Of a DNA stretch of 64,000 bases, positions 1 through 64,000 are shown in pieces. This DNA comes from an uncultured virus (IMG/VR IMGVR_UViG_3300047381_001220) (Duplodnaviria; Heunggongvirae; Uroviricota; Caudoviricetes): IMG/VR virus record IMGVR_UViG_3300047381_001220; one strand, given 5' to 3'. Each line of letters starts with the position of its first letter. Within the stretch, counting starts at the first letter, position 1. The notes below the pieces were generated by a model, which was given only the letters and a program-made list of their open reading frames with translations, was not told where the DNA came from and ran no database searches. Made by a program: the position numbers and the translations under genes.

Positions 1-246
1 ATGGAAAATAAAAGGATGCCAAACCAACTAGATTTGCCTGATTATATGAATACAAAAACTTGGTATTATTGTGGTAAAGCATATTCAGTAAGTTATGATT
101 TTGCAAAATATATCTCCACAACAGTTTCATCACAAAAAATAGTTGAAGAGCATTCAATTAAAAATGATGAAAATTATCATGAATTTGCAGTCGAGGATTA
201 TATGATCGGTAGAATATTTGAAAAATATATCAAAACAAAAAAATAG
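1..246 (+). CDS. Probable C-terminal part of a GT31-like galactosyltransferase (likely truncated by window edge)
   Basis: YYCGKAYSVS...VEDYMIG resembles the GT31 GxxY.hS and ED motifs. Confidence 0.5.
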   Translation: MENKRMPNQLDLPDYMNTKTWYYCGKAYSVSYDFAKYISTTVSSQKIVEEHSIKNDENYHEFAVEDYMIGRIFEKYIKTKK

Positions 247-257
247 GTTATATCAAA

Positions 258-1262
258 TTGCAATATATAATAACAGAACGTGATGTTGGACTTGCAAGTT
301 TATTATTTCAAGTTATTAACGCATTAAATAGATGCGAGAAAGAAGAACTTGGAACACCTATTGTTTACTTCAAAAATCAATGTGTCTACTATAATCCCGA
401 TGGTCATCAAAACAAAGACAATGTTTGGGAATATTATTTTCGTCCTGTAAATGAAACTGCTGATACATTGATGATTTCTGATAAAAACAAATCGGAAATA
501 GAAAATGCGTATCAAAACACAGAACCAAAGAAATTAAATAATAGTCGTTTCGTCAAATTAAGTGACGGAAACAAAATGTGTTGTCATTACGGAGATAGAA
601 AAATGGGACACACAATGATTGTTCCACCACATTTAATTCCCGAAGTTTACGAAGATGGTCATCGTGAAAAGGCAAATGCAATCATCAACAAATACTTTAA
701 ACTCAGAATGTATCTAAATGATAAAATCCATAACTTTTTTGCAGAAAATTTAGCAGACGCAAACAAAGTTCTTGGTGTTCATATTCGTGGAACAGATGCA
801 CTTGTAAATAAAGCAGAGAGATGGAGAAAGAAATTCGACATTCAAAATTACATAGATTGTATAAAATTATTTACAGAAAAATATAAAGACGAAGGTAAGG
901 TATTTGTAGCAAGTGATGATGCGAAGTTGTTTAATATTGTTAAAAACGAATTTGATGATCTAATTGTTGATTATGATACATTTCGCCAAGAAGAAGACGA
1001 TGTAGGTAAAAGTGGTAATACTACAAAAGGAGATGCAATGATGCCTACCTATTTATGTGATGATGGAGCAAAAGCATCCCAAAATGGAGAAGATGCAATT
1101 GCTGAAATGTATTTACTAAGCAAGTGTGATTATTTGCTTCACAACGCAAGTGGATTTGCTCATGTTGCTTTGCTAATAAATTCGGAAATAAATCACATGG
1201 ATAGTCAACGTCCGGGTGGTCAAATTTTGTTAAATAATTTTAAGGAGATGATAAATGGATAA
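258..1262 (+). CDS. NodZ/GT23-like fucosyltransferase
   Basis: GVHIRGTD, VFVASDD, YLLSKCDYLLHNASGF; TTG start. Confidence 0.7.
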   Translation: MQYIITERDVGLASLLFQVINALNRCEKEELGTPIVYFKNQCVYYNPDGHQNKDNVWEYYFRPVNETADTLMISDKNKSEIENAYQNTEPKKLNNSRFVKLSDGNKMCCHYGDRKMGHTMIVPPHLIPEVYEDGHREKANAIINKYFKLRMYLNDKIHNFFAENLADANKVLGVHIRGTDALVNKAERWRKKFDIQNYIDCIKLFTEKYKDEGKVFVASDDAKLFNIVKNEFDDLIVDYDTFRQEEDDVGKSGNTTKGDAMMPTYLCDDGAKASQNGEDAIAEMYLLSKCDYLLHNASGFAHVALLINSEINHMDSQRPGGQILLNNFKEMING

Positions 1263-2055
1263 TTTTAATATTGAGTCTTTTTTGAGTGAATATAAAAATA
1301 AAAAAATAATATTAGTATGTAATTCAGGAAACGCAGGAGATGCTTTAATTGCCAAAGGAACTTTTGATCTTTTTGAAAAAATAGGAATTGAATATGAATT
1401 TGGTTCTTGGACGTCTAAATACAATAATTCAGAACTATTTTACGGTGGTGGAGGAAATCTGTCCGGTATGTATCCACATTGTAGAAAATTTATTAAAAAT
1501 AATTTTAGAAATAACAATATAGTTGTATTACCTCACACAGTACGTGGAGTGTGGAAAATACTTAGAAAGTTTACAAAAAGAATCAAGATTATTTGTAGGG
1601 AAGAAGTTTCGTATAATCATGTATATAATACAATAAAAAATAAAAATAATGCAATGATTTCGGATGATATGGCATTTCACTGTAATATACCAACTAAATA
1701 TAAGAATATAATCGGAAAAGGTCATGTAAACTGTTTTAGAAAAGCAGGTGAATGTGAATCCCCAAAAAATATTAATTTACCAAATGATAATATTGATTTA
1801 TCTTTAACTTGTGGTGGTGGAGATATGGACTCACACTCGTTTGTAAATGAAATTTTTGAAAATGTAATGCAAGAATTATCAAAGTATAAAACCATCAGCA
1901 CTAATCGTTTACACATGGCAATTGGAGGTGCATTGCTTGGAAAACAAGTCAATTTTTATTCAAACAATTATTATAAGTGTAAAGCCGTGTATGAGTATTC
2001 TTTAAAAAAGTATTCAAATGTAAAGTGGTGTGGAGATTACAATTATGAAAATTGA
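1255..2055 (+). CDS. Polysaccharide pyruvyl transferase family protein
   Basis: GNAGDALI, YGGGGNL, CREEVSY, TNRLHMAIGGALLG. Confidence 0.8.
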   Translation: MDNFNIESFLSEYKNKKIILVCNSGNAGDALIAKGTFDLFEKIGIEYEFGSWTSKYNNSELFYGGGGNLSGMYPHCRKFIKNNFRNNNIVVLPHTVRGVWKILRKFTKRIKIICREEVSYNHVYNTIKNKNNAMISDDMAFHCNIPTKYKNIIGKGHVNCFRKAGECESPKNINLPNDNIDLSLTCGGGDMDSHSFVNEIFENVMQELSKYKTISTNRLHMAIGGALLGKQVNFYSNNYYKCKAVYEYSLKKYSNVKWCGDYNYEN

Positions 2056-2803
2056 CGTAATCATAGGACATTCAAACACACACGATTCCCGTGATAGGAA
2101 TTTGAAATTTATTGTTGCACGATATCAAAAATTGCTTCCAAACGCAAAAATAACAATCGTTGAGCAAAACACCGAAACAGACCTATCTGAATTAAGTGTT
2201 AATCATATACTCAGAAAAACACCTAATCCATTTGATTACAGTCGTGGGTATGGATTTAACGAAGGAGCAAAGATAACTGACGGTGATTATATGATATTCG
2301 CAGATAATGACATTTTATTACACGAAGACTTGTTGAACAACTTTGAAGAACTTGTGAGTGGATATGATTTTTTTGTTCCTTCGCAAAAATTTCTTAACAT
2401 TTCACGTGACGGAACAAAGAAAGTAATTGCAGGTGAAAACTTAGATAAATCGTGGTTGGGTAGAGATAGACCGAGAGTGGCTGCAAATGGTGCAGGGGGA
2501 GTCTGTATTATGTCTAGGAAAGGTTTTTATGAAGTATATGGATGGGAACCGTCAATTGGGTCTTGGTGTCCTGAAGACGAATTAATGCGAAGTAAAGTGG
2601 ATACATTTAGTTTGAAAATTGGAAGATCACCTTACGATATGTATCATCTTGATCACGATACGAAAGCACATCGTAAACTTGCAAGACTAAACGACAAAAA
2701 GCAATGGAAAGAAATGGTAGAAAGAATATCAGTATTCAAGCAAATGAACAAACAGCAACTTTCAGATCACTATGAAAAAATAGGAGAAGATCATTTTAGA
2801 TAA
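2045..2803 (+). CDS. GT2/GT7-C type glycosyltransferase
   Basis: FADNDI (DxD), GGVCIMSR..F..VYGWE...GSWCPED; ATG at 2045 preferred. Confidence 0.75.
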   Translation: MKIDVIIGHSNTHDSRDRNLKFIVARYQKLLPNAKITIVEQNTETDLSELSVNHILRKTPNPFDYSRGYGFNEGAKITDGDYMIFADNDILLHEDLLNNFEELVSGYDFFVPSQKFLNISRDGTKKVIAGENLDKSWLGRDRPRVAANGAGGVCIMSRKGFYEVYGWEPSIGSWCPEDELMRSKVDTFSLKIGRSPYDMYHLDHDTKAHRKLARLNDKKQWKEMVERISVFKQMNKQQLSDHYEKIGEDHFR

Positions 2804-3561
2804 TGAAAGTAAGAAATAAAATAACAAATACATATCCAATTGTATTTCATTTATCTGGTCTTTTTAAGTGGAATCGTCTAGGTCACAGTATACACAATAT
2901 GAGTAAAAAATTAAATCACAAATTTATAAAAATCAGAGAGGATTTAGATTTATGTTTTTTTAGTCATGGGTATAATAATAGAAGTATGGTTGAAGAATCA
3001 TTAAATCAGTTTGGATTGTCAATTGTAAATTTAAATGATTATATAAAGTTACCCGAATCAAATACTTTTAATGAGATAAAAGGTGCAAAATTGACTGCAC
3101 TCAGAGAATATTTAGATACATCAACAAAAAAATATATAATAGGTCAAGACGCAGGTGATGTATTTTTTATTAAACATCCAAATTTAGTTATAGAATTATT
3201 TGAAGAAAAATTTGATTGCGAGATGCTTCTAAACGGAGAAACTATAGTATTTCCACGTGTTGCAACTAACATTTACAAAAGATTAGATACTCAATTAATA
3301 TATAAGGATAAAGGTAAAAAGTTTAAATTTTTAAACTCGGGATTATTTGTTGCTAAAGTAAATTTTCTTAAAACGATAATAGACGAGTTAATTGCTACAC
3401 CATATATTGGTGATGCAAAGGATCAGGGTCAGTTTCAGCAAATATACGAAAAATATTATCCAAAAATACAGGTTGATGTAGATTGTGAGATATTTCAAAC
3501 CACCGTATTTAGGAAAGAAGATCGTGGAAACGATCATAAATTTTTAAAAATAGAGAAATGA
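2803..3561 (+). CDS. PLOD (procollagen lysyl hydroxylase) glycosyltransferase-domain-like protein, apparently circularly permuted
   Basis: QDAGDV, FLNSGLFVA, KDQ, IQVDVDCEIFQT; N-terminal RNKITNTYPIVFH. Confidence 0.65.
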   Translation: MKVRNKITNTYPIVFHLSGLFKWNRLGHSIHNMSKKLNHKFIKIREDLDLCFFSHGYNNRSMVEESLNQFGLSIVNLNDYIKLPESNTFNEIKGAKLTALREYLDTSTKKYIIGQDAGDVFFIKHPNLVIELFEEKFDCEMLLNGETIVFPRVATNIYKRLDTQLIYKDKGKKFKFLNSGLFVAKVNFLKTIIDELIATPYIGDAKDQGQFQQIYEKYYPKIQVDVDCEIFQTTVFRKEDRGNDHKFLKIEK

Positions 3562-4409
3562 ACTACATAAACATACATTTGAAAGGACTTCTCGCAAACC
3601 AAATGTTTTGCGTTTCTGCTTTGTTTGCATATGCTTGGAAACACAACCTAACACCAATTATTAAAAGCAATCAAATATCTCGCAATCACGACAAGGGTAA
3701 AGATTCATTGTTGAAGGTGTTTCCAAACATACCGTTCAACGATGAATTAGATTTTGAGATCGAGGAATTTTTGGAAGAACCAAAGTCGTTGGGATTCCGT
3801 TATCAGGAGATACCATTTTATCCAAACAAAAATGTTCAAATGCGTGGATTTCGCCAAAGTGAAAAATATTTTGTGGAATACAAAAAAGAAATTCAAAAAA
3901 TGTTTGCACCTAAAACTGAAGAACTGCAATACCTTGAAAACAAGTATTCTGATATATTAAAAAACAGTGTTTCACTTCACATTCGCAAGGGTCGTGATAA
4001 TGCCGATACTTATAGTTCTGCTTATTATTGTTTATACGAGGATTTAAACACTTACTATCCAAATGCACTTCGCAAAATTTTAGAAATGAACAAAAAAATT
4101 GATAACATCGTAATATTCTCAGATGCAGTTGATTGGGTAGAAGAAAATCTTGATCTATCTGAGTTTGATTCAAATGTAACTTTTGTTCGTGGGGAGAAGG
4201 ATTACATGGATATTCATTTAATGAGTATGTGTAAGTATAACATCATTGCAAACTCCACATTTAGTTGGTGGGGTGCATGGTTGAATCGCAACGAGGATAA
4301 AGTGGTGATTGCACCAACAGAATGGCACCCGTTGCATAAGAAACGAAAGTTTAGTGATGAAGACATAATTTGTGAAGATTGGATTCGTGTGGAAGTAACT
4401 GATGATTAG
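3558..4409 (+). CDS. Alpha-1,2-fucosyltransferase (GT11)
   Basis: GLLANQMF, SLHIRKG, IIANSTFSWWGAWL, VIAP. Confidence 0.85.
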   Translation: MNYINIHLKGLLANQMFCVSALFAYAWKHNLTPIIKSNQISRNHDKGKDSLLKVFPNIPFNDELDFEIEEFLEEPKSLGFRYQEIPFYPNKNVQMRGFRQSEKYFVEYKKEIQKMFAPKTEELQYLENKYSDILKNSVSLHIRKGRDNADTYSSAYYCLYEDLNTYYPNALRKILEMNKKIDNIVIFSDAVDWVEENLDLSEFDSNVTFVRGEKDYMDIHLMSMCKYNIIANSTFSWWGAWLNRNEDKVVIAPTEWHPLHKKRKFSDEDIICEDWIRVEVTDD

Positions 4410-5004
4410 TCATGCACATAAATTTATTTTTATTCATATTCCAAAAACCGGTGGGACGAGTATTGAAAAAGTTTTTAAAAAACAAATTAAAAATAATCGT
4501 AAACATTTAACATTTTTTCAGTATGAGAATGAGTTAAAATCAGAAATTGAGAAATATTTTATATTTTCTGTAATCAGAAATCCGTGGGATAGACTTGTTT
4601 CGTATTGGAAATATAGACAAGGTAAAATACACGCACCAATTGACGGAAAAATGAATATATTTGATGACTGGTTAAAATTCATATCATCACTAAATTTAGA
4701 TGATTTACATGGAAAAACTGAAAAGAGTAATATTCCTGATTTTAGAATGGGACTAGATTCGCAATTCAATTCTCTAATAAACAAACAAAATAAAATAAAT
4801 GTAAATTTAGTTAGATTTGAAAATTTACAAAACGACTTTAACACAATCTGTGATAAAATTGGAATAAAACGTCATCATCTTCCACATAAAAACAAAAGTA
4901 GACACAAACACTATACTGAATACTACAACGAAGAAACAAAACAAATTGTTGCTGAAAAATATGCAAAGGATATTAAATATTTTGATTACAAGTTTGGTTC
5001 ATAG
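4402..5004 (+). CDS. Sulfotransferase (Sulfotransfer_2 / carbohydrate sulfotransferase-like)
   Basis: FIHIPKTGGTS (5'-PSB loop), RNPWDRLVS (3'-PB), RFENLQ. Confidence 0.85.
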   Translation: MISHAHKFIFIHIPKTGGTSIEKVFKKQIKNNRKHLTFFQYENELKSEIEKYFIFSVIRNPWDRLVSYWKYRQGKIHAPIDGKMNIFDDWLKFISSLNLDDLHGKTEKSNIPDFRMGLDSQFNSLINKQNKINVNLVRFENLQNDFNTICDKIGIKRHHLPHKNKSRHKHYTEYYNEETKQIVAEKYAKDIKYFDYKFGS

Positions 5005-5020
5005 AAAATCACTCGGTTAG

Positions 5021-5028
5021 ATATTTAT
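5021..5028 (+). promoter_or_regulatory. ATATTTAT putative phage promoter element
   Basis: Recurrent intergenic octamer; 4 nt before ATG 5033. Confidence 0.6.
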
Positions 5029-5032
5029 TATA

Positions 5033-5719
5033 ATGATGAAAAGTGATAATCCGTTTGGTTTTTTTGAAAAAATTTATTGTATAAACTTACAAACTAGAAC
5101 AGACCGTTGGGAAGAGGTTCAAGTTCAGTTTGATAAAATCGGTATACTTGACAGAGTTGAGAGACTTAATGCAGTTACAAAAGAAGAAGCAATTAAAATC
5201 TCAAAAGTAAAACTTAAAAAGTCGGGAGATATACAAGGTCAGGCGGCAGGATCACTTAGTCATTATACTTGCTTGAAAAAGTCAATAGAAAGCGGAGTCA
5301 AAAATTATTTAGTATTCGAGGATGATGTATATTTTGAAAATTATGATGCAAATGATTTGACACAATCAATAAAAGAATTGCCAACCGATTGGAAAATGTT
5401 CATGATGGGATATAATGGTTGGAATCGCAAGAGACTTGATAACTTTTCATCTAAATTAAATACGGCAGATGCGTTTGGATTGGCACACGCATATGCAGTT
5501 AATCATGTATTTTATGACCAGTACAAGTCAGAGTTTGAAAAAAGAGTAATCCGTGGGGAAACACATCGTGTGCGATGGTTTAAGAGAATTGAGTATTTTC
5601 TTTCACATACTTGTGATAATTTTCATTTAATGAAAAATAAGTTTGCATTTCAAGAAGTAGGGTATAGTGATATTGCTCAAATGGAAATAGATAGAGAAAC
5701 TGATACAATATTTGAATAA
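5033..5719 (+). CDS. GT25 glycosyltransferase
   Basis: YCINLQTRTDR, SLSH, LVFEDD, AHAYAV. Confidence 0.8.
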   Translation: MMKSDNPFGFFEKIYCINLQTRTDRWEEVQVQFDKIGILDRVERLNAVTKEEAIKISKVKLKKSGDIQGQAAGSLSHYTCLKKSIESGVKNYLVFEDDVYFENYDANDLTQSIKELPTDWKMFMMGYNGWNRKRLDNFSSKLNTADAFGLAHAYAVNHVFYDQYKSEFEKRVIRGETHRVRWFKRIEYFLSHTCDNFHLMKNKFAFQEVGYSDIAQMEIDRETDTIFE

Positions 5720-6455
5720 AAAAATGAGAGATGAACTATTAGATTTTTTTGATGGAATTTACTGCGTTAATTTAGATAGTAGAGTTGACAGATGGAATTC
5801 TGCACAAGAAGCATTTAAAAAACTCGGAATAGATGATAAAGTAGAACGATTCCGTGCTGTTGAATGCAGGAGTAATTTAAGTCGGCAGAAAATTGCAAAA
5901 GACTACTATAATATTGATTTACATGGAAATTTATTTCGTAGAAAATATCCAATTCACGGTGCAGTAGGATGTGCTACGAGTCATATTGAAATTTTAAAAA
6001 TTGCTAAAAGCAAAAATTTAAAAAATGTTTTAGTATTTGAAGATGATTTTAAAATTCTTGACGAATACGATAAAAATAGTTTATTGGTTTTAAATGAATT
6101 GCGAGATTTTAAAAAGTCGTGGGAATTATTATACTTAGGGTGGGAGTATGATGGAAACCCACGTGAAACAACGAAAAGTATAAGTAAAAGTAATCGGGGA
6201 TCTAAGAAATTTGGATTGCGAACAACCCGTGCAATTGCATATAATGAAAATGTATTTGACAAGATAATAAAATCAAATCCTTTTAATTCAAAAAAATATG
6301 GTCGTGGTGGTCATATTGATTTTTTTTATAGAAGAAATACATTTGCGAGAATTTTTACAAGACCTGCACTATTTGGAGTTCATAAAAATTCAATAGGATT
6401 GGGTGATATAGATTTATTAAAAAAATTAAACAAGAGAAATAAAAATGGAAAATGA
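5712..6455 (+). CDS. GT25 glycosyltransferase
   Basis: YCVNLDSRVDR, GCATSH, LVFEDD, LLYLG; start may be ATG 5724. Confidence 0.8.
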   Translation: MNKKMRDELLDFFDGIYCVNLDSRVDRWNSAQEAFKKLGIDDKVERFRAVECRSNLSRQKIAKDYYNIDLHGNLFRRKYPIHGAVGCATSHIEILKIAKSKNLKNVLVFEDDFKILDEYDKNSLLVLNELRDFKKSWELLYLGWEYDGNPRETTKSISKSNRGSKKFGLRTTRAIAYNENVFDKIIKSNPFNSKKYGRGGHIDFFYRRNTFARIFTRPALFGVHKNSIGLGDIDLLKKLNKRNKNGK

Positions 6456-7071
6456 AAAAGTATTATTTTTGGGAGATTCAATAACAAGGCATTATTATCC
6501 GTATGCTGAAATTTTATTGAGTAAGAATGAAATTGAAGCCGTTGTACCTGATAAGTGGGTTTCTTGTCAATGGAAGCAAGTGAGAATGATTGGTCAACTT
6601 TTACAGGGTAAACGAAAGTACGGAGGTCGTAAAGTAAAAGCAGAAACTGTACATTTTAATTTTGGTTTACATAGTATTAAATTGCCACACAAAGGACATG
6701 ATCCCGAGCATCAACGTGCTACGCAAGAAGATATTGATACCTATGAAAAAGAATTAATTGAAGAAATTGAATATCTTAGAAAATTGAATATTAAAAATAT
6801 ATTATTTTCAAATACAACTCCAAGTCCAAAAAATCATGGAGTTCGCAAGGATGCCGATGTTGTAATTCTAAATGAAATTGCAGACAGAATTATGAGAAAG
6901 TATGATGTTCCATTGAATGATCTATATGGGTTTGTAAAATCTCAAGAAGATTATCCAAGATTGTATATGCACCCACGTGCAGAAAATAATTGCCATTTTG
7001 CTGAACATGGTCGTGAGTTACTTGGAAACCAAGTTGGTGAATTTGTTCTTAAGCATATGAAGTCATCGTGA
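6445..7071 (+). CDS. SGNH/GDSL hydrolase (possible O-acetyl esterase or transferase)
   Basis: FLGDSIT, HFNFGLH, NCHF. Confidence 0.75.
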   Translation: MENEKVLFLGDSITRHYYPYAEILLSKNEIEAVVPDKWVSCQWKQVRMIGQLLQGKRKYGGRKVKAETVHFNFGLHSIKLPHKGHDPEHQRATQEDIDTYEKELIEEIEYLRKLNIKNILFSNTTPSPKNHGVRKDADVVILNEIADRIMRKYDVPLNDLYGFVKSQEDYPRLYMHPRAENNCHFAEHGRELLGNQVGEFVLKHMKSS

Positions 7072-7991
7072 AAAAACATTTCATAATCAGGTCCGGAGAT
7101 GAAAATGCAGGATTTACTGCATACATTAAGTTTGCTCTGAACGGTATTTTACACGCAGAGCAACACGACATGATTCCGGTGGTAAACTTTGATAATTCTA
7201 CACGGAATTTTTTTTACGAAGAATGTTATGGAGAAAATACTTGGGATTATTATTTTGAACCCGTTGCAAAAGTATCATATGCAGATGTGATCAAAAATGA
7301 TCTACCTAAGTGTACATTAAAAGATCGTCAGTTTCGCAATCAAAACTCACATCCCAATCCAGATCGTGTGGACACATTTTGGAAAAGTGATCGAAAAATT
7401 GGGGGAGATGAACACAGAGGAGAACCAAAAAAGTGGTTAGAAAATAAACGGAAGATTGCACGTAAACTTATGCAGAAGTATGTTGTCGTAAAACCACACA
7501 TTCAAAAAATCGTAGACAACTTTGTAAATGAGAATTTCTACAACAGGAGTATTATAGGATGTCATGTTCGTGGAACTGACTTTGCGTATGCAACGGCAAC
7601 ATCAGTTGAAAAATATTTCGAGATATTAGATTCACAAAAAGATATACACATTTTTCTCGCAACGGATCAAACTCAGTATGTTGAATTATTTAAGGAACGA
7701 TATGGAGATGAAAAAATTTTAACATACGATAGTATGAGAAGTGATAATGATGTGGCCGCATTTGAACTTGAAAATGGCAGTCCATATAAAAAAGGAGAGG
7801 ATGTATTAATTGATACCTTGCTTTTAAGCAGAACAAATTCAATCATCAAGTGTGCGGCCGCAGGTGGTGAGTTTGCTTTATGGTTCAATGAAAATCTTGA
7901 AGTCCTTCACGACTTTGCATTGGAAAGTAAGTTCCAAAAGGGTGGTCATTGGAATCGGGAAAATACTGCATTTAATCGTTTAAAACTTTAA
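7068..7991 (+). CDS. NodZ/GT23-like fucosyltransferase
   Basis: NTWDYYFEP, GCHVRGTD, FLATD, GEDVLIDTLLLS; paralogue of 258..1262. Confidence 0.7.
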   Translation: MKKHFIIRSGDENAGFTAYIKFALNGILHAEQHDMIPVVNFDNSTRNFFYEECYGENTWDYYFEPVAKVSYADVIKNDLPKCTLKDRQFRNQNSHPNPDRVDTFWKSDRKIGGDEHRGEPKKWLENKRKIARKLMQKYVVVKPHIQKIVDNFVNENFYNRSIIGCHVRGTDFAYATATSVEKYFEILDSQKDIHIFLATDQTQYVELFKERYGDEKILTYDSMRSDNDVAAFELENGSPYKKGEDVLIDTLLLSRTNSIIKCAAAGGEFALWFNENLEVLHDFALESKFQKGGHWNRENTAFNRLKL

Positions 7992-7997
7992 TGAAAA

Positions 7998-8005
7998 ATA
8001 TTTAT
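7998..8005 (+). promoter_or_regulatory. ATATTTAT putative phage promoter element
   Basis: 5 nt before GTG 8011. Confidence 0.6.
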
Positions 8006-8010
8006 ACCGA

Positions 8011-8865
8011 GTGAAAGGAATAATATTAGCAGGAGGAAGTGGAACTCGTTTGTATCCAACAACAAGTGTAGCAAGCAAACAATTGCTTATGCTTTATGAT
8101 AAACCAATGATTTACTATTCGTTGTCGAGTTTATTAAGATTCGGTATCAACGAAATATGTATAATCTCCAACGATATCGGGTTGAAGTTTTTCCGACAAC
8201 TTTTCGGTGATGGCAAAAAGTTCGGATGCAAATTTGAGTATGTTCATCAGGAAAAAAGCAATGGGATTGCTGAAGCATTTATTCTTGCAGAAGACTTTAT
8301 TGGAGATGATCCTGTGTGTTTAATTTTGGGTGACAACTTTTTTCATGCGTCAAATAAATTCTTTGGAATTGAAACTCCAATAAAAGGAGGAACGGTGTTT
8401 GCTTATCGTGTGGAAGATCCTGAAAGATACGGAGTAGTTGAATTTGATAAAAACAACGTTGCGTTAAGCATAGAAGAAAAACCAAAGAAACCTAAAAGCA
8501 ATTATGCAGTTACTGGATTATATTTTTACGACAATGATGTGGTGAATATTTCCAAGAATTTAAAACCATCTGATCGTGGGGAACTTGAAATTACAGATGT
8601 AAACAATGAGTATTTAAAACGAGGTGATCTTAAAGTAAAAGTAATGCCAAACGGAAGTGCTTGGTTAGACGCAGGAACTGCTGAAAGTTTCTTTGATACC
8701 TCATCGTACATCAGAACAATTCAAAGAAGACAGGGAGTGTGTATAGGGTGCTTGGAAAGCATCTGCCTTGAGCAAAACTTTATTGATGTTCAACAATATG
8801 ATCGTTTGCTAAGAAAAATACCAAAATCTTCATATAAAGATGCTTTACGAGGAAAGTTTTTATAA
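8011..8865 (+). CDS. rmlA: Glucose-1-phosphate thymidylyltransferase
   Basis: MKGIILAGGSGTRLYP, SKQLL..YDKPMIYY, YAVTGLYFYD, RGELEITD, WLDAGT. Confidence 0.95.
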   Translation: MKGIILAGGSGTRLYPTTSVASKQLLMLYDKPMIYYSLSSLLRFGINEICIISNDIGLKFFRQLFGDGKKFGCKFEYVHQEKSNGIAEAFILAEDFIGDDPVCLILGDNFFHASNKFFGIETPIKGGTVFAYRVEDPERYGVVEFDKNNVALSIEEKPKKPKSNYAVTGLYFYDNDVVNISKNLKPSDRGELEITDVNNEYLKRGDLKVKVMPNGSAWLDAGTAESFFDTSSYIRTIQRRQGVCIGCLESICLEQNFIDVQQYDRLLRKIPKSSYKDALRGKFL

Positions 8866-8880
8866 AAACTAATATTTATA
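8861..8880 (+). promoter_or_regulatory. Extended promoter-like element TATAAAAACTAATATTTATA
   Basis: Identical 20-mer at 63906-63925 and 18-mer match at 51380-51397; ATATTTAT 5 nt before GTG 8885. Confidence 0.6.
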
Positions 8881-8884
8881 ATAT

Positions 8885-9757: not shown

Positions 9758-9787
9758 GTTAGTTTTTATATTATTTAATATTTATCT

Positions 9788-10189: not shown

Positions 10190-10190
10190 A

Positions 10191-53184: not shown

Positions 53185-53207
53185 TCTAACCTGGAGATAA
53201 TAAAAAA

Positions 53208-56200: not shown

Positions 56201-58199
56201 TGGACTATTTTATCATGGATGTGCTCAAGGTACGCATACAAAGAATCTTAGTGGTTCAACAAATAGTAATCCTTATTTTAAATATTTCAACATTTCAACT
56301 CTTCCATTAAACGTATGGTGCTTGTCTGTTGGATATATTCATGCAAACAATGATCCTGATAAATCTTCATATGGAGGTGGTTTGTATAGAATTGATAATG
56401 GTAAGAAACTTGTATCATATACTGACTATAAAATGGGAACCAGTGGTGTACAAAACCATCGTACGTATTTGTATTACTCTACAAGTCCTGCGGCTGCTCT
56501 TGATTGGACATTGCCTGGATTCTATGAAGTATGTAGTGATTCACCAACTTTAGGACAACTTCTTGGTGGAGGTGGAGTATTAGGTGGAGGAGAAAAAGGA
56601 CCACAAGGACCTGCTGGATCAAGAGGACCTGCGGGACCTGCTGGACCAATGCCTAATATCGGTGAACTTCAAAGTCACCAATTTGGTGTTCTTAAAACAA
56701 ATCGTTTAGACATGAGTGGTGATATTGAAATGGATAGAAATGGTCAAACTTCTCGTATGATCAAATTTAATAGTTCCTGTAATATATATTCAAGTTCCTC
56801 AAATAATATGCACTATCGTTCTGCTGGTGGTAAGCACCACTTTACAAACGGAAGCAATGGTGCAGGAACAATTGTTGTTGATAGATTAGAAGCAAATAAA
56901 CTTGATTTATCTGCAATTTCATTCAGTGGAAGTACAAGTACATTCAAGGGAACATCAAATTGGTCAAATGTTACTATTGACGGAATGGGTGCAAAAGCAT
57001 GGAGAGGTAATGGTTTTTATGTTCATCGTGCTGATAACAAAATGTATGCAGCTTGGGTAATGGATGTAAATGGTGCAACACGATTTGGTATTCATGCTCA
57101 CTCTGGTGCAGGAGTATACAAAGATTGGAAAAAATATATTTTCGATAATCGTTTGATGATTGATACAAATCGAAGTTCTGTCACTGGATTGCACTCAACA
57201 ATTCGCACACATCAAGAAAGCACCAATTCGCATCCTAATTCATTGCATATTCTTGCGAACCACGGAGATTTGCTTCTTGAAGCAAATAACATTCGTAAAG
57301 GTACAAATCAGAATGCAACTGTAGGTGGTCATGGAAGTGTGATATTCAGAGCACACGGAATTCCTGTGATAGGTCATGTTGTAGATACAACGAATAGTAA
57401 TTCTACTATTTACAAAAGACAACGTGGTGATTATGTTTATGGTGGAACGACTGGTGCGAATGCGTACAATCGTTACCGTCAAAAACACTTCCAAGGAAAT
57501 GCACGTTCCGGTGTAAGTATAAAACTTATTGGAGGTGCGTTGATTCCAACATACGGAGTTGTTGACCTTGGTGCTCCAGTTCATGCTCATCGTTTTGATA
57601 CATTGTGGTGTCGTAATGCTCCTGATGTTTATTCTGATAAACGAGCAAAAACAAAAATTGAAACAAGTGATCTCGGACTTGACTTCATTAATAAATTGAA
57701 ACCTGTAAGTTACAAATATAAGGATGTTAAAATTCTTACTGATAAACTTAAAAATCTTGATGGAGACGAAGAAAACGAAGATAGAGAAAAAGATGAATTG
57801 GAAATTACCAAAGAGACTCACGGAAGAACTCACTACGGAATGATTGCACAAGATGTTGAAGAAGTTCTTAAAGGAAAGGACTTTGGTGGTTTTGTTGATC
57901 CAAATTATGCATTGGATGATGAAGACGAGGGTAAAGGTGAACTTCACATGAGTCTTCGTTACGAAGAGTTCATTTCACCTATGATCAAAGCAATTCAAGA
58001 AGTTGATGACAAAATTGAAGACCTTGAGAAGTACAAAAAATTCAGTGCAGGACGTGTTTCTAAATTAGAGTCTAAGCACGAAACTCGTAACAAAAATTCT
58101 AATAAGGAAATCAAAGAGATTAAGGATTCTCAGAAGAAGATATTAGATGCTATAAGTGAAATTACAAAAAGGTTAGACAACATAGAAAAGTCTAAGTAA
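53208..58199 (+). CDS. Long tail fibre/adhesin with collagen segments, LamG-like domain and C-terminal S74 intramolecular chaperone
   Basis: KKISEL N-terminus, G-X-Y runs, VGIGT repeats, FSISFWV...WTHFTYV...GMVDDIRIFD, SDKRAK...GLDFINKLKPVSY...HYGMIAQDV...LRYEEFI; GGAG RBS. Confidence 0.88.
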   Translation: MADGKKISELTKLSNLADADEFVVVNKDVTSGDESGIGGQTSRITFSDLKSEIGTQGPQGPAGGDGAAGKSAYDLWIEAGNTGSIAQFLESLKGSSGSDGAVGPSGPTGPKGETGDSAFTVTSSGQLSLGDNKVGIGTDSAEATLHIKDSRPTLRLTDGASPGVADYEIANDNDILFIRSIPGENILVIDNKNVGIGTTPSAGRLHVVGGNSPTEGFCLGGRKDDGSELTTMRFFHDDNDHAHISRGLVKTLSLSQSGNVGIGIDKPESLLHVKSDTAGAHVLIETTKNTGSTEAILHLKTPTSLYGLYANDGTDQFGIANYRSGAESKYPMKINGNGNVTFDGVVSAKGFSINGKDLTGADLRGPEGPAGPAGKDGTNGTDGAVGSSNAHLGLIMDSTITLNDSENQVFKKTGSNGWNASVRSSIGYNSGCSLSFTANINNRAGMIGINTDPTTNNNYNTIDFAWYMTGSGAAYIYENGKSKGSFGAFSVGNIFVITYDNNTVRYYLNGTLKRSVTVGAGKTYYLDSSFHTVDSRPYTRTLSFHPMGAVGTKGDKGDKGNTGERGIQGVAGPSGPVGIQGPSGPSGQPVSVTSPVSRWDASSWSTGGTLQAIIGSKPIYLGGEDTDFGKDSTIVLDGSRGKVFNFPARGNRRSGGNYVQAGDIHDNIFMSGNFSISFWVYVRDYKTTTGNSTHLKNNPGTIMSKWWTQNRNGTNNSFIIYSTGQFYSAYSHSHTFVNTSDYPKLNNWTHFTYVLNKGQLTVYRNGKSIPLKWNLNPGAANKTVRHLFNNVSGSYPLEVGSIRKNGAYSLDGMVDDIRIFDEPLTAGEAWFTYNGVGGGGLVGPQGPQGPKGSTGSTGSRGQTGPAGPRGVAGPRGPQGIPGPSGPKGTTGAAGAKGADGISSTQNYASNKRWEIAKNKGSFADEGTGGAFTVNGSASENYIDWEIGPFGRRTKVWKARNNDTASNADGGWNKTITNLKKNAAYMSVVYVRRTSSNTSGLFYHGCAQGTHTKNLSGSTNSNPYFKYFNISTLPLNVWCLSVGYIHANNDPDKSSYGGGLYRIDNGKKLVSYTDYKMGTSGVQNHRTYLYYSTSPAAALDWTLPGFYEVCSDSPTLGQLLGGGGVLGGGEKGPQGPAGSRGPAGPAGPMPNIGELQSHQFGVLKTNRLDMSGDIEMDRNGQTSRMIKFNSSCNIYSSSSNNMHYRSAGGKHHFTNGSNGAGTIVVDRLEANKLDLSAISFSGSTSTFKGTSNWSNVTIDGMGAKAWRGNGFYVHRADNKMYAAWVMDVNGATRFGIHAHSGAGVYKDWKKYIFDNRLMIDTNRSSVTGLHSTIRTHQESTNSHPNSLHILANHGDLLLEANNIRKGTNQNATVGGHGSVIFRAHGIPVIGHVVDTTNSNSTIYKRQRGDYVYGGTTGANAYNRYRQKHFQGNARSGVSIKLIGGALIPTYGVVDLGAPVHAHRFDTLWCRNAPDVYSDKRAKTKIETSDLGLDFINKLKPVSYKYKDVKILTDKLKNLDGDEENEDREKDELEITKETHGRTHYGMIAQDVEEVLKGKDFGGFVDPNYALDDEDEGKGELHMSLRYEEFISPMIKAIQEVDDKIEDLEKYKKFSAGRVSKLESKHETRNKNSNKEIKEIKDSQKKILDAISEITKRLDNIEKSK

Positions 58200-58212
58200 T
58201 AGATTAAAGTTT

Positions 58213-58246
58213 GGGGTGGGGAACTTAAAAATCCCCACCCCTTTTT
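58213..58246 (+). terminator. Rho-independent terminator
   Basis: GGGGTGGGGA / TCCCCACCCC 10-bp stem, 9-nt loop, then TTTTT. Confidence 0.85.
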
Positions 58247-58261
58247 ATAAAGAGAACAAAA

Positions 58262-59497
58262 ATGGAATACGAAACAAAACTTCCCGAATACAATAAAAAC
58301 GAAGAACTCGGATCACTTAGTCAAAGAATTGATTGGGGATTAAGACAACTTAATGTTCCTTCTACTTGGAGTGTAACTAAAGGTGAAGGAATTACTGCAA
58401 TGGTAATTGACACAGGGCATCCTGTGCATCCTGATATAGGAGATAATGCAATTAAAGGAAAGAACTGCATTTCTGGTGAACCAATAGAAGATGAAAATGG
58501 ACACCAACTTCATTGCACAGGTATTATTAATGCAAAAGACAATCAAACTGGTATGGTAGGAGTTGCACCTGAAGCAAAATGTATTTCAGTAAAAGCATTA
58601 GCAAAAAACGGAAGTGGAACTTATTACGGATTAGCAGAAGCATTAGATTATGCAATTGAAATGAAACCTGATGTAGTAAGCATGAGTTTAGGAGGACCTG
58701 CTCCGTCATCAGTTTTGCACGACAGAATCAAAACATTATATGAAATGAATATACCTGTTGTGTGTGCGGCTGGAAACTCAGGAGACGGAGGAGTTAATTA
58801 TCCGGCTGCATTTGACGAAACAATTGCAGTTGCGGCTTATGATCGTTGGGGAAAAATTGCTAACTTTTCTTCTAAAGGAGAAAAAGTAGAATGGGCTGCA
58901 CCTGGTGTAAACATTTATAGTACCTTTCTTAACAACGGATATGCAAGTTTAAGTGGAACATCAATGGCTTGTCCATTTATTACAGGTGTTATTTGTTTGA
59001 TGCTTGCAAAACATAAAAAACAAGAAGCAGAAACAGGTAAGAATGATTGCAAAACGGTTGCACAAATACGTGAGCATTTATTAAAATACACAAAAGATAA
59101 AGGTGAAGTAGGAAAAGACAACTCTTGGGGATATGGTGTAATAGATGTGGAAAAGATGATTAAAGACGGAGAGGAAGTATCAGAACCTACTCCAACACCA
59201 ACAAATACTGCAACTAATACACCCACCAAAACACCAACACCTACTAATACCAAAACTCCAACCAAAACTCATACCAAAACACAAACTCCGACAAATACTC
59301 CTGATAAAGTAAAACCAAAACCAAAAAAGAATAAACTACCTTTGATTATTGGTGGAGTAGTTGTGGTGATTGGGATTATTGGAGCAGTAATTTATTTTGC
59401 GACAAAACAAGATGAAGTAATTATTCCGAATCCTCCATATATAAATGAACATGGAGAAATTGATTGGGATAAAAAATATGAACAGGAAATAAAATAA
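58262..59497 (+). CDS. Subtilisin-like (S8) serine protease with Pro/Thr linker and C-terminal membrane anchor
   Basis: VIDTG, NGHQLHCTG, AAGNSG, SGTSMACP; PT/KT repeats; LPLIIGGVVVVIGIIGAVIYF. Confidence 0.9.
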   Translation: MEYETKLPEYNKNEELGSLSQRIDWGLRQLNVPSTWSVTKGEGITAMVIDTGHPVHPDIGDNAIKGKNCISGEPIEDENGHQLHCTGIINAKDNQTGMVGVAPEAKCISVKALAKNGSGTYYGLAEALDYAIEMKPDVVSMSLGGPAPSSVLHDRIKTLYEMNIPVVCAAGNSGDGGVNYPAAFDETIAVAAYDRWGKIANFSSKGEKVEWAAPGVNIYSTFLNNGYASLSGTSMACPFITGVICLMLAKHKKQEAETGKNDCKTVAQIREHLLKYTKDKGEVGKDNSWGYGVIDVEKMIKDGEEVSEPTPTPTNTATNTPTKTPTPTNTKTPTKTHTKTQTPTNTPDKVKPKPKKNKLPLIIGGVVVVIGIIGAVIYFATKQDEVIIPNPPYINEHGEIDWDKKYEQEIK

Positions 59498-60093
59498 TGG
59501 CAGAGGACATCAACAAACGAGTAGAAGCATTTGAGGCCGCACTTGATTTACTTGAACAACAAGTAGATTGGCAAAAAGATCATTTTCAAGAATTGTTTGA
59601 AGCAGATGAAAAGAAAAATACCGAAATTCATATTAAGTATGCAGAATTATCATCAGTTGTTGAACTAATCAAAGAACAATTAAAGTGGCAAAAAGACTTT
59701 GTAAATAATTTTGTAAGACAAGATACTTCTCTTGATAAAAAAATGGCAGACCGTGTAAATGAAATGTCACGATTAGTAGGATTAATGGCAGACAAACTTG
59801 ATTTACAAAAAGATAAATTAGATTCATATATAAAAACTGGTGCGACTAAAAACAATAGCATGACGGATCGTTTGGGTGGTTTAAAAGACGACATTACGAA
59901 ATTAAAGTCTGTAAAAGATATTGATGCAAAAAGAGAAATTAACGATGTAAAAGGTTCAGTTCGTAAAATGAAAAATGTAAATAAATTTCATGGTGATTAC
60001 ATAAAAAAACTTGAACGTAAAATAGAAAATAAACAAAACGCAATTAAAAAACGATTTAAGCAAATAGAGAATAAAATAGATGAATCAAACTAA
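59497..60093 (+). CDS. Coiled-coil hypothetical protein
   Basis: Heptad-rich; internal repeats of L..Q..WQKD type. Confidence 0.55.
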   Translation: MAEDINKRVEAFEAALDLLEQQVDWQKDHFQELFEADEKKNTEIHIKYAELSSVVELIKEQLKWQKDFVNNFVRQDTSLDKKMADRVNEMSRLVGLMADKLDLQKDKLDSYIKTGATKNNSMTDRLGGLKDDITKLKSVKDIDAKREINDVKGSVRKMKNVNKFHGDYIKKLERKIENKQNAIKKRFKQIENKIDESN

Positions 60094-60658
60094 CAAATTT
60101 ATATCAACTGATTATTTAAATCAATCTGCGTTTGAAGCAAAGTATAATAGAAAAGCATATGCTTTTTGGTTGGTTGGTAATAGTGGAAGTGGAAAAAGCA
60201 CTCTTGCAAAAGAAGTAGAAAAAAAACTTTTTGATGTCAATATTAAGGTAAAATGTTTAGACGGAGATAATATGAGAAACACTATCAATTCAGATTTAGA
60301 TTTATCAATTGAATCTAGAAATGAAAATATAAGAAGAAGTGCGGAAATTTCCAAAATGTTTTTAGAAACTGGCATTAGTACATTAAATTGTTTTATTTCA
60401 CCACTTGAAATATATCGTGAGCAAGCAAAGAAAATAATTGGAAATCGTTTTCGTTTAATTTATATAAAAGCATCTAATGATGAAGTAAAAAAACGAGATG
60501 TTAAAGGATTTTACAAAAATGATGCAGATGCAATGAATAAGTCACTTAATATGTTTGAAAAACCAATTAATCCAGACTTGATAATTGATACCACAAATAA
60601 ATCAATAAAATATTCCGCAAACATTTTGTATAATTTTGTATTAAATCAACCAATCTAA
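60080..60658 (+). CDS. cysC: Adenylyl-sulfate (APS) kinase
   Basis: GNSGSGKST, LDGDNMR, R.ENIRR, FISP, RDVKGFY, PDL.IDT. Confidence 0.88.
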   Translation: MNQTNKFISTDYLNQSAFEAKYNRKAYAFWLVGNSGSGKSTLAKEVEKKLFDVNIKVKCLDGDNMRNTINSDLDLSIESRNENIRRSAEISKMFLETGISTLNCFISPLEIYREQAKKIIGNRFRLIYIKASNDEVKKRDVKGFYKNDADAMNKSLNMFEKPINPDLIIDTTNKSIKYSANILYNFVLNQPI

Positions 60659-60666
60659 ATATTTAT
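60659..60666 (+). promoter_or_regulatory. ATATTTAT putative phage promoter element
   Basis: 7 nt before ATG 60674. Confidence 0.55.
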
Positions 60667-60673
60667 AAATGAG

Positions 60674-61579
60674 ATGAAAAAATGTAACTTAACACACCTA
60701 GAGGAACTTGAAGCAGAAAGCATTCATGTATTAAGAGAAACGGCTGCTCAGTTTTCAAGTTCAACATTGCTTTTTAGTGGTGGTAAAGATAGTTTAGTCT
60801 GTCTTCACCTAATTGCAAAAGCATTTTATCCTGCCAACTCACCCTTTGTTGCTCTGCACGTTGATACAGGTCACAATTTTCCGGAGGTAATGGAATTTCG
60901 TGACAAAGTGTTAAAGCAATACAATATGAAGTTATTTGATCGCAAAGTAGAAGATGCGATTAAAGAGGGACTTGTTCATGATGAAACTGGTGTTGGGGCA
61001 ACACGCAATGAACTTCAAATACCTGTGCTTCTTGATGCAATTGAACATCATAAATTTGATGTTTGTATTGGTGGAGCAAGACGTGACGAAGAAAAAGCAA
61101 GAGCAAAAGAACGTTTCTTTTCTCATCGTGATGATTTCGGTCAATGGGACCCAAAAAATCAACGACCAGAAATTTGGGATTTATACAACGGAAAGAAAAA
61201 CCAAGGAGAGCATTTCCGAGTGTTTCCAATAAGTAATTGGACAGAACTTGATGTTTGGACTTATTTAAAAATGGAAAACATTCCCTTGCCATCACTTTAC
61301 TTTTCACATAAAAGAAAATGTTATCAACGTGACGGAGTTTGGTATGGTCACGCAGATTATGTGCAGTTAAAGGAAGGTGAACGTTTAAAAGAAAAAGTAG
61401 TTCGTTTTCGTTCAATCGGAGATGTTACTTGCACAGGTGCTTGTGAAAGTAAAGCAGATAACATTGATGATATTATTGCGGAAGTAGCAAGTGCTACTAC
61501 AACAGAAAGAGGAACAAGAGGAGACGATAAGAAATCTGAAACAAGTATGGAAGACCGCAAGCAACAAGGATATTTCTAA
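60674..61579 (+). CDS. cysD: Sulfate adenylyltransferase subunit 2
   Basis: LEAESIH, FSGGKDS, HVDTG, GGARRDEEKARAKER, WDPKNQRPE, RVFPISNWTE, MEDRK..GYF. Confidence 0.97.
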   Translation: MKKCNLTHLEELEAESIHVLRETAAQFSSSTLLFSGGKDSLVCLHLIAKAFYPANSPFVALHVDTGHNFPEVMEFRDKVLKQYNMKLFDRKVEDAIKEGLVHDETGVGATRNELQIPVLLDAIEHHKFDVCIGGARRDEEKARAKERFFSHRDDFGQWDPKNQRPEIWDLYNGKKNQGEHFRVFPISNWTELDVWTYLKMENIPLPSLYFSHKRKCYQRDGVWYGHADYVQLKEGERLKEKVVRFRSIGDVTCTGACESKADNIDDIIAEVASATTTERGTRGDDKKSETSMEDRKQQGYF

Positions 61580-61580
61580 A

Positions 61581-62906
61581 ATGGGTGATAATAAAAATAA
61601 TAAAAAGAAGTCTGATAAAACAAAATCAGATAATAAACCAAACGTAAATAAATTACAGAATAATGAACTTCTTCGTCTTTCTACTGCTGGTAGTGTAGAT
61701 GATGGTAAAAGCACTTTAATTGGTCGTTTGCTTTATGATACAAAAAGTGTTATGAAAGATCAATACGAAGCAGTTCGTGCTACAAGTAAAAAGAAAGGTG
61801 AAGATGATGTAAATCTTGCGTATCTTACAGATGGTCTTAAAAGTGAACGTGAACAAGGAATTACAATTGATGTAGCATATCGTTATTTTAATACTGCAAA
61901 TCGTAAGTTCATTATTTCAGATACACCTGGTCATGTTCAATATACTCGTAACATGGTAACGGGTGCAAGTAAAAGTAATGTCGCAATTATTTTAGTGGAT
62001 GCACGAAACGGAATTTCAGAACAAACACGAAGACATTCGTTTATTGCAAGTTTATTGAAAATACCTCATGTTATTTATGCAGTAAATAAAATGGACTTGA
62101 TAGATTATGATCAAGAAAAGTTTAATAAAATAAAACAAGATTTAAAGAAATTTAGTGCAAAACTTCGTTGCAATGATATTCGTTTTATTCCTATATCAGC
62201 ATTGAAAGGTGATAATGTTACAACCAAATCACAAAAAACAAAATGGTACAAAGGTGGTCATTTGCTTGGTATGCTTGAAAACATTGAAATCTTCTCAGAC
62301 AACAATTTAGTGGACGCACGATTTGATATTCAAACTGTGATTCGTCCTCATAGTGATGAATGGCATGACTTTCGTGGATATGCAGGTAAAATCATAAGTG
62401 GTCGTTTTGAGAAAGGACAAAAAGTTCAAGTGCTTCCTAGTGGATTTGAAACTCGTATCAAAGATATGCGTGTATATAAAGATTTAGTGGATGAAGCCTG
62501 CACTCCTGCAAGTATTGTAATGCAACTTGAAGATGATATAGATGCAGGACGAGGTGATATGATTGCACGGATTGATAATCTACCAAAGGTATCTCAGAAA
62601 TTTGATGCAATGATTTGTTGGATGTCTGACGATGTTATGCTTCCTCGTAAAAAATATTTACTTAAACACGGAAGTAACGAAGTAACTGCAATGATTACAA
62701 AAAAAGTTTATACATTAGATGTCAATACTTTCAGTAAAGCAGAAGATCAAAGTTTGCAAATCGGTCTGAATGACATAGCAAGAATAAGTATTAAAACAAG
62801 TAAACCATTAAACTTTGATGACTTTGAAAGCAATCGTGCGAATGGAAGTTTCATTTTAATTGATACACAAACAAATGAAACGATTGCGGCCGGAATGATT
62901 AAGTGA
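61581..62906 (+). CDS. cysN: Sulfate adenylyltransferase subunit 1 (GTPase)
   Basis: TAGSVDDGKSTLIGRLL, EREQGITIDVAYRYF, DTPGHVQYTRNM, NKMD; ATG 61581. Confidence 0.97.
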   Translation: MGDNKNNKKKSDKTKSDNKPNVNKLQNNELLRLSTAGSVDDGKSTLIGRLLYDTKSVMKDQYEAVRATSKKKGEDDVNLAYLTDGLKSEREQGITIDVAYRYFNTANRKFIISDTPGHVQYTRNMVTGASKSNVAIILVDARNGISEQTRRHSFIASLLKIPHVIYAVNKMDLIDYDQEKFNKIKQDLKKFSAKLRCNDIRFIPISALKGDNVTTKSQKTKWYKGGHLLGMLENIEIFSDNNLVDARFDIQTVIRPHSDEWHDFRGYAGKIISGRFEKGQKVQVLPSGFETRIKDMRVYKDLVDEACTPASIVMQLEDDIDAGRGDMIARIDNLPKVSQKFDAMICWMSDDVMLPRKKYLLKHGSNEVTAMITKKVYTLDVNTFSKAEDQSLQIGLNDIARISIKTSKPLNFDDFESNRANGSFILIDTQTNETIAAGMIK

Positions 62907-63910
62907 ATACTATTATAGTTACGGGAGGTTTGGGATACATCGGTAGTCATACCGTTGTAGAATTGCTAAACGAAGGATATGAAGTAGTTGTAATTGATAA
63001 TTTGTCAAATTCTTCGGAGGATGTTATTGATGGTATTCGTGCAATCACGAAAAAAGGTGTCCACTTTTTTAATGTGGACATTCGTGATTATGATGAATTA
63101 GAAAAAGCATTTGGTTATTATCAACAAGACATAAAAGCAGTTGTGCATTTCGCTGCGTGTAAAAGTGTTGGTGAAAGTATGAAAGAACCAAGCAAATACT
63201 ACGACAACAATGTTGCGGGTACAAACAATTTGCTTATGGTGATGAAATACTATAACATCAAGAATTTGATATTCAGTAGCAGTTGTACCGTTTATGGTCA
63301 AGCAGACGAACTTCCTATTACAGAGAAAACTCCGCAAAAACCTGCGGAAAGTGTTTATGGTCGTACCAAACAAATATGTGAACAAATGATAACTGATTTT
63401 CATATTGAACACGATTTTAATTCAACATTGCTTCGTTATTTTAATCCAATAGGATCACACGAAAGTGCATTAATTGGAGAACTACCAAACGGAGTACCTG
63501 ATAATTTAATTCCGTATGTTACGCAAACTGCAATTGGTAAACGAAAAGAACTTACTGTATTTGGAACAGATTATGATACACCAGATGGAACTTGTATTCG
63601 TGATTATATCCACGTAGTAGATTTAGCAAAAGCACACGTTAAAGCAATTGTGGTATGCAACGAGAAAAAATTTAATGCCATTCCAATAAATTTGGGAACA
63701 GGTAATGGATACTCAGTAAAAGAGGTTCTTGATACGTTTCAAAAAGAAAATGATATAGAACTTAACATAAAATACGGAAAACGAAGAGAAGGTGACATTA
63801 CAAGTGCATATGCAGATGCTTCTCTTGCATACGAATTATTACAATGGAAGGCAGAATTAGGTTTAATTGAAATGGTGAAATCTGCTTGGGAGTGGGAGCA
63901 AAAATTATAA
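62903..63910 (+). CDS. galE: UDP-glucose 4-epimerase
   Basis: TGGLGYIGSHT, HFAA.KSVGES, YGRTK, LRYFNPIG, PDGTCIRDYIHV, NLGTG. Confidence 0.95.
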   Translation: MNTIIVTGGLGYIGSHTVVELLNEGYEVVVIDNLSNSSEDVIDGIRAITKKGVHFFNVDIRDYDELEKAFGYYQQDIKAVVHFAACKSVGESMKEPSKYYDNNVAGTNNLLMVMKYYNIKNLIFSSSCTVYGQADELPITEKTPQKPAESVYGRTKQICEQMITDFHIEHDFNSTLLRYFNPIGSHESALIGELPNGVPDNLIPYVTQTAIGKRKELTVFGTDYDTPDGTCIRDYIHVVDLAKAHVKAIVVCNEKKFNAIPINLGTGNGYSVKEVLDTFQKENDIELNIKYGKRREGDITSAYADASLAYELLQWKAELGLIEMVKSAWEWEQKL

Positions 63911-63925
63911 AAACTAATATTTATA
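63906..63925 (+). promoter_or_regulatory. Extended promoter-like element TATAAAAACTAATATTTATA
   Basis: Identical to 8861-8880. Confidence 0.6.
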
Positions 63926-63961
63926 AGAAAAGACTTTATTAATTAATGGGAGAAAATCAAA

Positions 63962-64000
63962 ATGATTACAAGTGAAGGTGATGCAGTAGTATCTTTTAAG
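63962..64000 (+). CDS. Start of an ORF running off the window (MITSEGDAVVSFK...)
   Basis: GGAG RBS upstream; open to window end. Confidence 0.4.
   Translation, partial: MITSEGDAVVSFK

Follow-up and report, generated by a model that had tools for sequence, protein, structure and literature searches.

GCNGC survives only beneath an overlapping VGCB word in a marine phage clade

We analysed a window of 64,000 nucleotides, the first 64 kb of the 74,046-base virus record IMGVR_UViG_3300047381_001220 (CheckV: 50% complete), and found that the fates of two short words in it are linked. GCNGC is kept only where VGCB (every GC neither preceded by T nor followed by A, that is, RGCB plus CGCG) overlaps it, and VGCB itself is strongly depleted. 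Judging from base order, this is probably because the phage methylates the C of VGCB, which would block a GCNGC endonuclease. The original prediction, made from the window, had claimed this dependence for RGCB and had explained it by 5-methylcytosine (m5C) at RGCB, erosion of those sites by deamination, and shielding of GCNGC by the same mark.

On the plus strand the 31 GCNGC of the window (within 2480..63156) start at 2480, 5243, 7755, 7854, 7857, 12323, 14394, 15326, 22488, 23384, 26421, 28753, 43819, 45790, 48819, 53406, 54624, 55542, 55881, 56151, 56490, 56493, 57048, 58766, 58805, 58832, 58895, 59536, 60743, 62886 and 63152. All 31 overlap RGCB on one strand, and each carries one VGCB. 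The whole contig has 32 such sites, comprising 30 in-frame Ala-Ala pairs, one out of frame and one intergenic. Every GCNGC position cited in the original prediction proved correct, and so did its claim about codon pairs: GCAGCA/TGCTGC is absent, against 16.9 expected (lowest shuffle, 9), and 30/30 Ala-Ala pairs overlap RGCB. Expected word counts come from 300 synonymous-codon shuffles; a context-preserving shuffle, which let AGCT rise from 8 to 30, was applied to longer words only. The total of GCNGC is barely reduced (31 versus 36.8 expected), with no overall under-representation, and the number of Ala-Ala pairs is near normal (30 versus 35). Standard site counts would therefore miss the rule, and so would surveys of restriction-site avoidance.

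With the genome's own choice of Ala codon after each base as the expectation, 26.2 unshielded Ala-Ala pairs were expected in the contig, and 30/30 are shielded (log10 P -28.2). In seven syntenic relatives (43 kb pooled) 32/32 Ala-Ala pairs are shielded, with 27.3 unshielded expected, and 34/34 GCNGC obey the overlap rule. The pool omits L015, whose counts equal those of L017, and the close relatives L008 and L009, which are 93-95% identical to the contig and each have 18/18 GCNGC shielded. In contrast, six control phage loci have 46/128 Ala-Ala pairs unshielded, against 45.2 expected. Further controls without the rule, all unrelated phages, are four whole records and eight subtilisin loci; every one of sixteen distant resolvase loci also has unshielded GCNGC (4-32 each). 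At 52389..52395 (+) the window encodes Asn-Ala where the seven relatives encode Ala-Ala in six spellings, all of them shielded. Contig and relatives together have 0/66 unshielded GCNGC, and exactly one GC per site stands in VGCB context (66/66). The survival rule is real and clade-wide.

Under a ban on GCWGC alone, unshielded GCSGC should number 8.3 in the contig (log10 P -6.5) and 6.8 in the seven relatives. None was found in either, and the ban therefore spans GCSGC as well as GCWGC. Coverage through RGCG/CGCY alone accounts for 13/66 sites, such as GGCGGCA at 5242..5248 (+; same class at 12322, 56150 and 63151), which suggests that the shield reaches beyond RGCY. At 16/66 sites the 7-mer lacks a GG/CC step; TGCAGCT at 57047..57053 (+), where one of the window's five AGCT lies inside an Ala-Ala pair, is of this kind. 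The 7-mers GGCAGCA, TGCTGCC, TGCGGCA and TGCCGCA do not occur in the contig or the seven relatives. GCGC follows the same rule as GCNGC: all copies seen (5/5) overlap RGCB, including the sole GCGC of the contig, which is overlapped by GGCG (24516..24521, +), and YGCGCR is absent against 7.0 expected. Of the original prediction the pattern stands as observed, and the methyl shield, an overlapping mark that would protect GCNGC, is supported by inference.

The same pattern could in principle arise with no mark at all, if separate bans on GCAGCA/TGCTGC and TGCSGCA, together with avoidance of AGCT, GCGC, CGCG and their kin, happened to tile it. The genome does avoid many restriction-like words, TGCGGCA/TGCCGCA is expected only 1.6 times (plain shuffle), and GGCC escapes depletion. 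Chance tiling, however, needs several independent bans that jointly make up one motif's complement, not in the contig alone but in seven relatives as well, and requires a preference for words otherwise avoided about 100-fold; with a GCWGC-only ban it also predicts the GCSGC sites that are missing. We consider such a coincidence very unlikely.

Depletion of VGCB and of other words

RGCB occurs 83 times against 367.6 +/- 13.2 expected (lowest shuffle, 332). Among its component words, AGCT falls to 8 versus 101.5, AGCG/CGCT to 5 versus 101.7 and GGCG/CGCC to 12 versus 52.3. As originally predicted, AGCT is rare, with five copies in the window at precisely the positions given (8979, 33648, 35875, 56015 and 57050), while TGCA occurs 348 times. 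One of the contig's eight AGCT lies in a tRNA-Met (CAT) gene just beyond the window (contig 69870-69945; L001 11870-11945). The codon-preserving shuffles that the original prediction had called for put AGCT, RGCB and GCAGCA/TGCTGC all below expectation. The predicted limits of the depleted set fared less well, since CGCG, which is not an RGCB word, is also absent (0 versus 23.4 expected; 0.04 of expectation in the relatives) and GGCC is undepleted. Given the absence of CGCG, VGCB fits the depleted set as well as or better than RGCB; the choice lies between VGCB as the motif and a ban on CGCG of its own.

The two-layer signature, VGCB depleted and unshielded GCNGC absent, spans positions 1..64000 (no strand assigned) and is even along the contig, with 7-14 VGCB in each full 8-kb bin. 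Over all sites VGCB is depleted 4-5-fold; where synonymous choice is free the factor is about 100. RGCG/CGCY stands at 0.08 of expectation in the contig and 0.11 in the relatives. GGWCC, CCWGG, GAATTC and GANTC are not depleted. Partial depletion was seen for ACNGT (90 versus 163), TTATAA (25 versus 61), CTNNAG (85 versus 142) and TCGA (42 versus 152).

The loss of VGCB is due to selection rather than to plain decay. In the alignment with L008, VGCB is present in either genome at 2/412 freely synonymous sites capable of it, versus 113/305 control sites. The asymmetric words have been removed from both strands (AGC-G 1 versus AGT-G 178; CGC-Y 3 versus CGT-Y 84), and Lys, Glu and Gln codons before CB end in G 5 times and in A 344 times. 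Ala following Lys, Glu, Gln, Met or Trp is encoded by GCA in 133/140 cases. In tripeptides conserved with L017, Ala is encoded as V-GCB in 1/28 cases versus T-GCB in 24/48. Since deamination of an Ala codon yields Val or Thr, neutral C-to-T decay cannot shift the third base there; conserved Ala codons shun VGCB, and the sites are therefore selected against, the word being disfavoured as such. Both the conserved Ala codons and the two strands of the asymmetric words thus speak against neutral C-to-T loss as the cause of depletion, and the proposal of m5C deamination as its sole cause fails. Redistribution of third bases, which should show an excess of T under deamination and none under selection, gave too noisy a signal.

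These observations bear on the explanation offered at the outset, that m5C set at RGCB by an M.CviJI-type enzyme would shield GCNGC and, through deamination, wear the RGCB sites away. M.CviJI has the specificity RGCB. RGTB and RGTA stand at 1.10 and 0.89 of expectation, as erosion would have it, although any synonymous avoidance gives the same. An m5C enzyme with this label, M.CviAIV, is listed for a chlorovirus as a pseudogene (PMC7248222), and two viral records with RGCY methylation were called m5C (PMC8919816). The m5C reading is weakened by the Ala codons, where deamination would be non-synonymous, by the clearing of both strands and of free sites, and by the lack of any PF00145 match on the contig. 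In a very large population, selection might still come from the burden of lethal deaminations. On balance we regard this explanation as unlikely.

Palindromes out of the reach of VGCB are simply deleted. RCATGY is missing (ACATGT, 0 versus 15.9 expected; ACATGC/GCATGT, 0 versus 11.5), as are CTGCAG (0 versus 14.1), TTCGAA (0 versus 11.3), ACTAGT (0 versus 8.6) and CCATGG (0 versus 11.7). ACATGT/ACATGC, CTGCAG and TTCGAA are words of NspI, PstI and BstBI, respectively. Enzymes for other words are Fnu4HI (GCNGC), TseI (GCWGC), HhaI (GCGC) and SpeI (ACTAGT) (PMC3459991). RGCB persists at 84 copies in 74 kb while the six-base palindromes fall to zero, which argues that RGCB is not itself an unprotected target.

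RCATGY is missing throughout, in the contig as in all the related loci counted (L008-L017), whereas CTGCAG, TTCGAA, ACTAGT and CCATGG return in distant relatives. Aligned DNA among the relatives is only about 66-83% identical, and host restriction systems usually turn over faster. The persistence of the GCNGC rule and of the RCATGY ban over this distance would suit nucleases of the phage's own, either a CviJI-like restriction-modification pair for VGCB, a GCNGC nuclease that degrades host DNA, or both, with self-cutting avoided. No such nuclease, however, was found on the contig, where the sole PD-(D/E)XK match is a RusA-like resolvase, and most marine viral methyltransferases are without a partner nuclease in PMC8919816. 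We think it quite unlikely that the phage is avoiding its own enzymes.

Source, gene content and relatives

The stretch is present in 20 sequencing runs, all from seawater or marine metagenomes; the 22 runs listed consist of contigs throughout. The contig has a G+C content of 31% and carries 84 of its 85 called open reading frames (ORFs) on the plus strand. The ORF at 52747..53184 (+), which belongs to no family, served as clade marker and was the query that found the syntenic relatives L008-L017. A 383,395-base contig encodes a protein 99% identical to it, and syntenic relatives were located on the contigs Ga0209199_1000010 (359 kb) and Ga0209198_1000001 (374 kb), read over the 20 kb surrounding the marker only. 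From these lengths the present contig would therefore represent about a fifth of a marine jumbo phage of roughly 360-380 kb. No clade member emerged from scans of viral contigs with MetK, the resolvase, the marker alignment, the subtilisin or the ORF at contig 69968, or from a scan of genome contigs with the marker; no close relative turned up among annotated phages. Four records sharing the subtilisin (G002-G005) were rejected as kin, having only 1-6 genes in common with the contig and no signature; the families PF00145, PF02086 and PF01555 are all absent from them, and they serve as controls.

In a Pfam scan of 63 window proteins most genes encode glycosyltransferases, sulfotransferases and sugar-nucleotide enzymes; others encode MetK, CysC/D/N, a deoxynucleoside monophosphate kinase, a resolvase, a fibre protein and a subtilisin. 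A very large cluster of glycosyltransferase, sulfotransferase, sugar-nucleotide and CysC/D/N genes flanks the fibre gene (window 258-51377 and 60080-63910). At 22188-23030 and 23204-23929 lie near-identical tandem gene copies with no Pfam match, whose proteins diverge at one short stretch near the C-terminus. In L007, a phage locus lacking the signature, a resolvase 70% identical to that of the window lies on the opposite strand inside a glycan cluster (10001-10528), a possible case of gene transfer.

MetK, the S-adenosylmethionine synthetase (44962..46119, +; Pfam), may supply a methyl donor for DNA, making it a candidate link to methylation, or may serve the glycan cluster. Adjoining it is a QueF-like gene (46121..46567, +) with EFTFLG in place of EFTSLC. 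This neighbourhood raises the possibility that the shield is another sequence-specific base change, for example 7-deazaguanine inserted by DpdA at a G of VGCB. Phage matches of the QueF-like protein include Dp-1 and HVTV-1. The Cys is catalytic in QueF, and it is missing from the EFTFLG of the window and L017, in contrast to EFTSLC in Dp-1 and Flasso. QueF-like proteins without the usual Cys form a widespread family (2454 clusters at E <= 1e-30), E[FL]TFLG being found in 114 of the best 120 relatives. DpdA enzymes act on particular motifs (in CAjan, GA and GGC; PMC10484667), and QueF-bearing phages were reported with dPreQ1 (10.1101/2023.04.13.536721). Against this possibility, the family includes several Bacteroidota-labelled members (70-77% identical), no other deazaguanine gene (dpdA, preQ0 synthesis) was found among the 63 scanned window proteins, and many palindromes that contain G are nevertheless reduced to zero copies. 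A deazaguanine shield therefore strikes us as highly improbable.

A proposed mark and its enzyme

In the favoured mechanism an enzyme of the phage would methylate the C of VGCB, probably to N4-methylcytosine (m4C); the predicted place of the candidate methyltransferase is the four-fifths of the genome beyond the contig. A single VGCB mark would be enough to stop an endonuclease that cuts GCNGC and that the phage encounters. Each mark would also carry a cost, most plausibly through McrBC-like modification-dependent nucleases (RmC) or through cutting at unmarked sites, so that VGCB would be purged except at unavoidable sites, selection stripping it to a minimum and retaining it where protection is gained. 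McrBC cuts at RmC with 5-methyl-, 5-hydroxymethyl- or 4-methylcytosine (5mC, 5hmC or 4mC; PMC12707154), and the McrC family is present in 20/201 Flavobacteriales genomes. Because the fragment carries no recognized DNA methyltransferase, we infer rather than observe that VGCB is marked, and the same applies to protection from either strand and to the cost of each mark.

A measured parallel comes from SMRT (single-molecule real-time) sequencing of marine viral metagenome-assembled genomes (MAGs). RGCY methylation was measured in 9 of these, mostly called m4C, and VGCY methylation in CM1_5m.V32, record LC629486 (350/545 sites, called m4C); their candidate enzymes are similar to M.Ssp6803II and M.AvaVII, m4C methyltransferases for GGCC (PMC8919816). 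Computed from the supplement's counts, assuming that both strands were counted, the measured RGCY/VGCY motifs reach 0.10-0.24 of the number expected from base composition. VGCY in our contig is under-represented as in those records, at 149 versus 1184 expected (0.13, base composition).

D12 methyltransferases offered another comparison. In 80 viral loci around D12/DPPY relatives RGCY is at 0.12 pooled and RGCG/CGCY at 0.82, and three cyanophages in culture that carry a D12 methyltransferase likewise deplete RGCY and not RGCG/CGCY. For these T4-like loci (L046-L125), the three cultured phages in which GATC was counted keep that word abundant, which suggests that the D12/DPPY enzyme marks RGCY and not GATC. 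Depletion in the present clade, with its low RGCG/CGCY, is not confined to RGCY in this way.

Several results weigh against methylation as proposed. PF00145, PF02086 and PF01555 have no match on the 74-kb contig, about a fifth of its relatives' length, and a 77-protein D12 profile matched its positive control only in a search of the contig and nine related loci, which are fragments. The Bsp6I (GCNGC) endonuclease family PF09504 was found in 0/301 Verrucomicrobiae and 0/301 Flavobacteriales genomes, a search lacking a positive control, and in 0/5 further genomes, again with no control match. CysD is 58-65% identical to Bacteroidota and Verrucomicrobiota proteins alike, which favours neither as the host group. 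That a GCNGC enzyme is blocked by a single hemi-mark, whether at position 2 or at position 5, is familiar for m5C only, and in the papers searched blocking by one mark at either position was not found. GGCC is not depleted (19 versus 18.5 expected), with 7/19 copies within Ala-Ala pairs and 2/19 forced by Trp-Pro. Finally, RGCY is at 0.09-0.15 in HTVC008M and 0.32-0.41 in S-SSM7 (L042-L045), both without a PF02086 match, so depletion is not one-to-one with that enzyme family. HTVC008M also has no TCGA and no CGCG in 40 kb.

That GCNGC is deleted wherever the presumed mark does not lie within it is evidence, at the level of sequence, that such a mark protects, and the purge of the presumed mark elsewhere is evidence of its cost. 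A further and rather doubtful possibility is that an undescribed cytosine methyltransferase of this jumbo-phage clade may read GC by exclusion (not TGC, not GCA), and that the genome may strike a balance between two host defences that pull in opposite directions. Each mark would block a Type II enzyme (GCNGC, GCGC) yet invite a modification-dependent one, with one mark per unavoidable site. If this were true, codon pairs on their own could reveal, for uncultured phages, the enzyme's specificity, the nuclease that is blocked and what the mark costs.

Relation to known systems

Restriction-site avoidance and phage methyltransferases are already known. The present genome resembles lytic double-stranded DNA phages that avoid restriction sites (PMC6286503) in having palindromes at or near zero. 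In that survey GCNGC is mostly over-abundant in phages; here, unlike the avoidance described there, its total is not low and avoidance depends on the flanks. The chlorovirus m5C enzymes M.CviJI and M.CviAIV share the RGCB label (PMC7248222, Table 1, for M.CviAIV). They are, however, enzymes of eukaryotic viruses, whereas our contig carries no C5 methyltransferase and is missing CGCG too. The T4-like D12 loci differ in that they deplete RGCY only and retain unshielded GCNGC (678/1078).

The closest precedent is the measured RGCY/VGCY methylation of marine myoviruses (PMC8919816). Those Myoviridae-like MAGs share the core word, VGCY being the reverse complement of RGCB, are likewise marine and lytic-type, and show a similar depletion of the motif. 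Some of them carry an additional mark (V1 and V14 on YGCYGC, V32 on TGCTGSH), words that the present clade has deleted, and their M.Ssp6803II/M.AvaVII-like enzyme has no match on our contig. That study doubted defence as the main role of viral methyltransferases, with few partner nucleases in host genomes. We found no account of the VGCB/GCNGC rule in searches that covered open-licence papers. What is new here is the VGCB shield, the purge of the shielding word itself, and the link of both to a measured motif.

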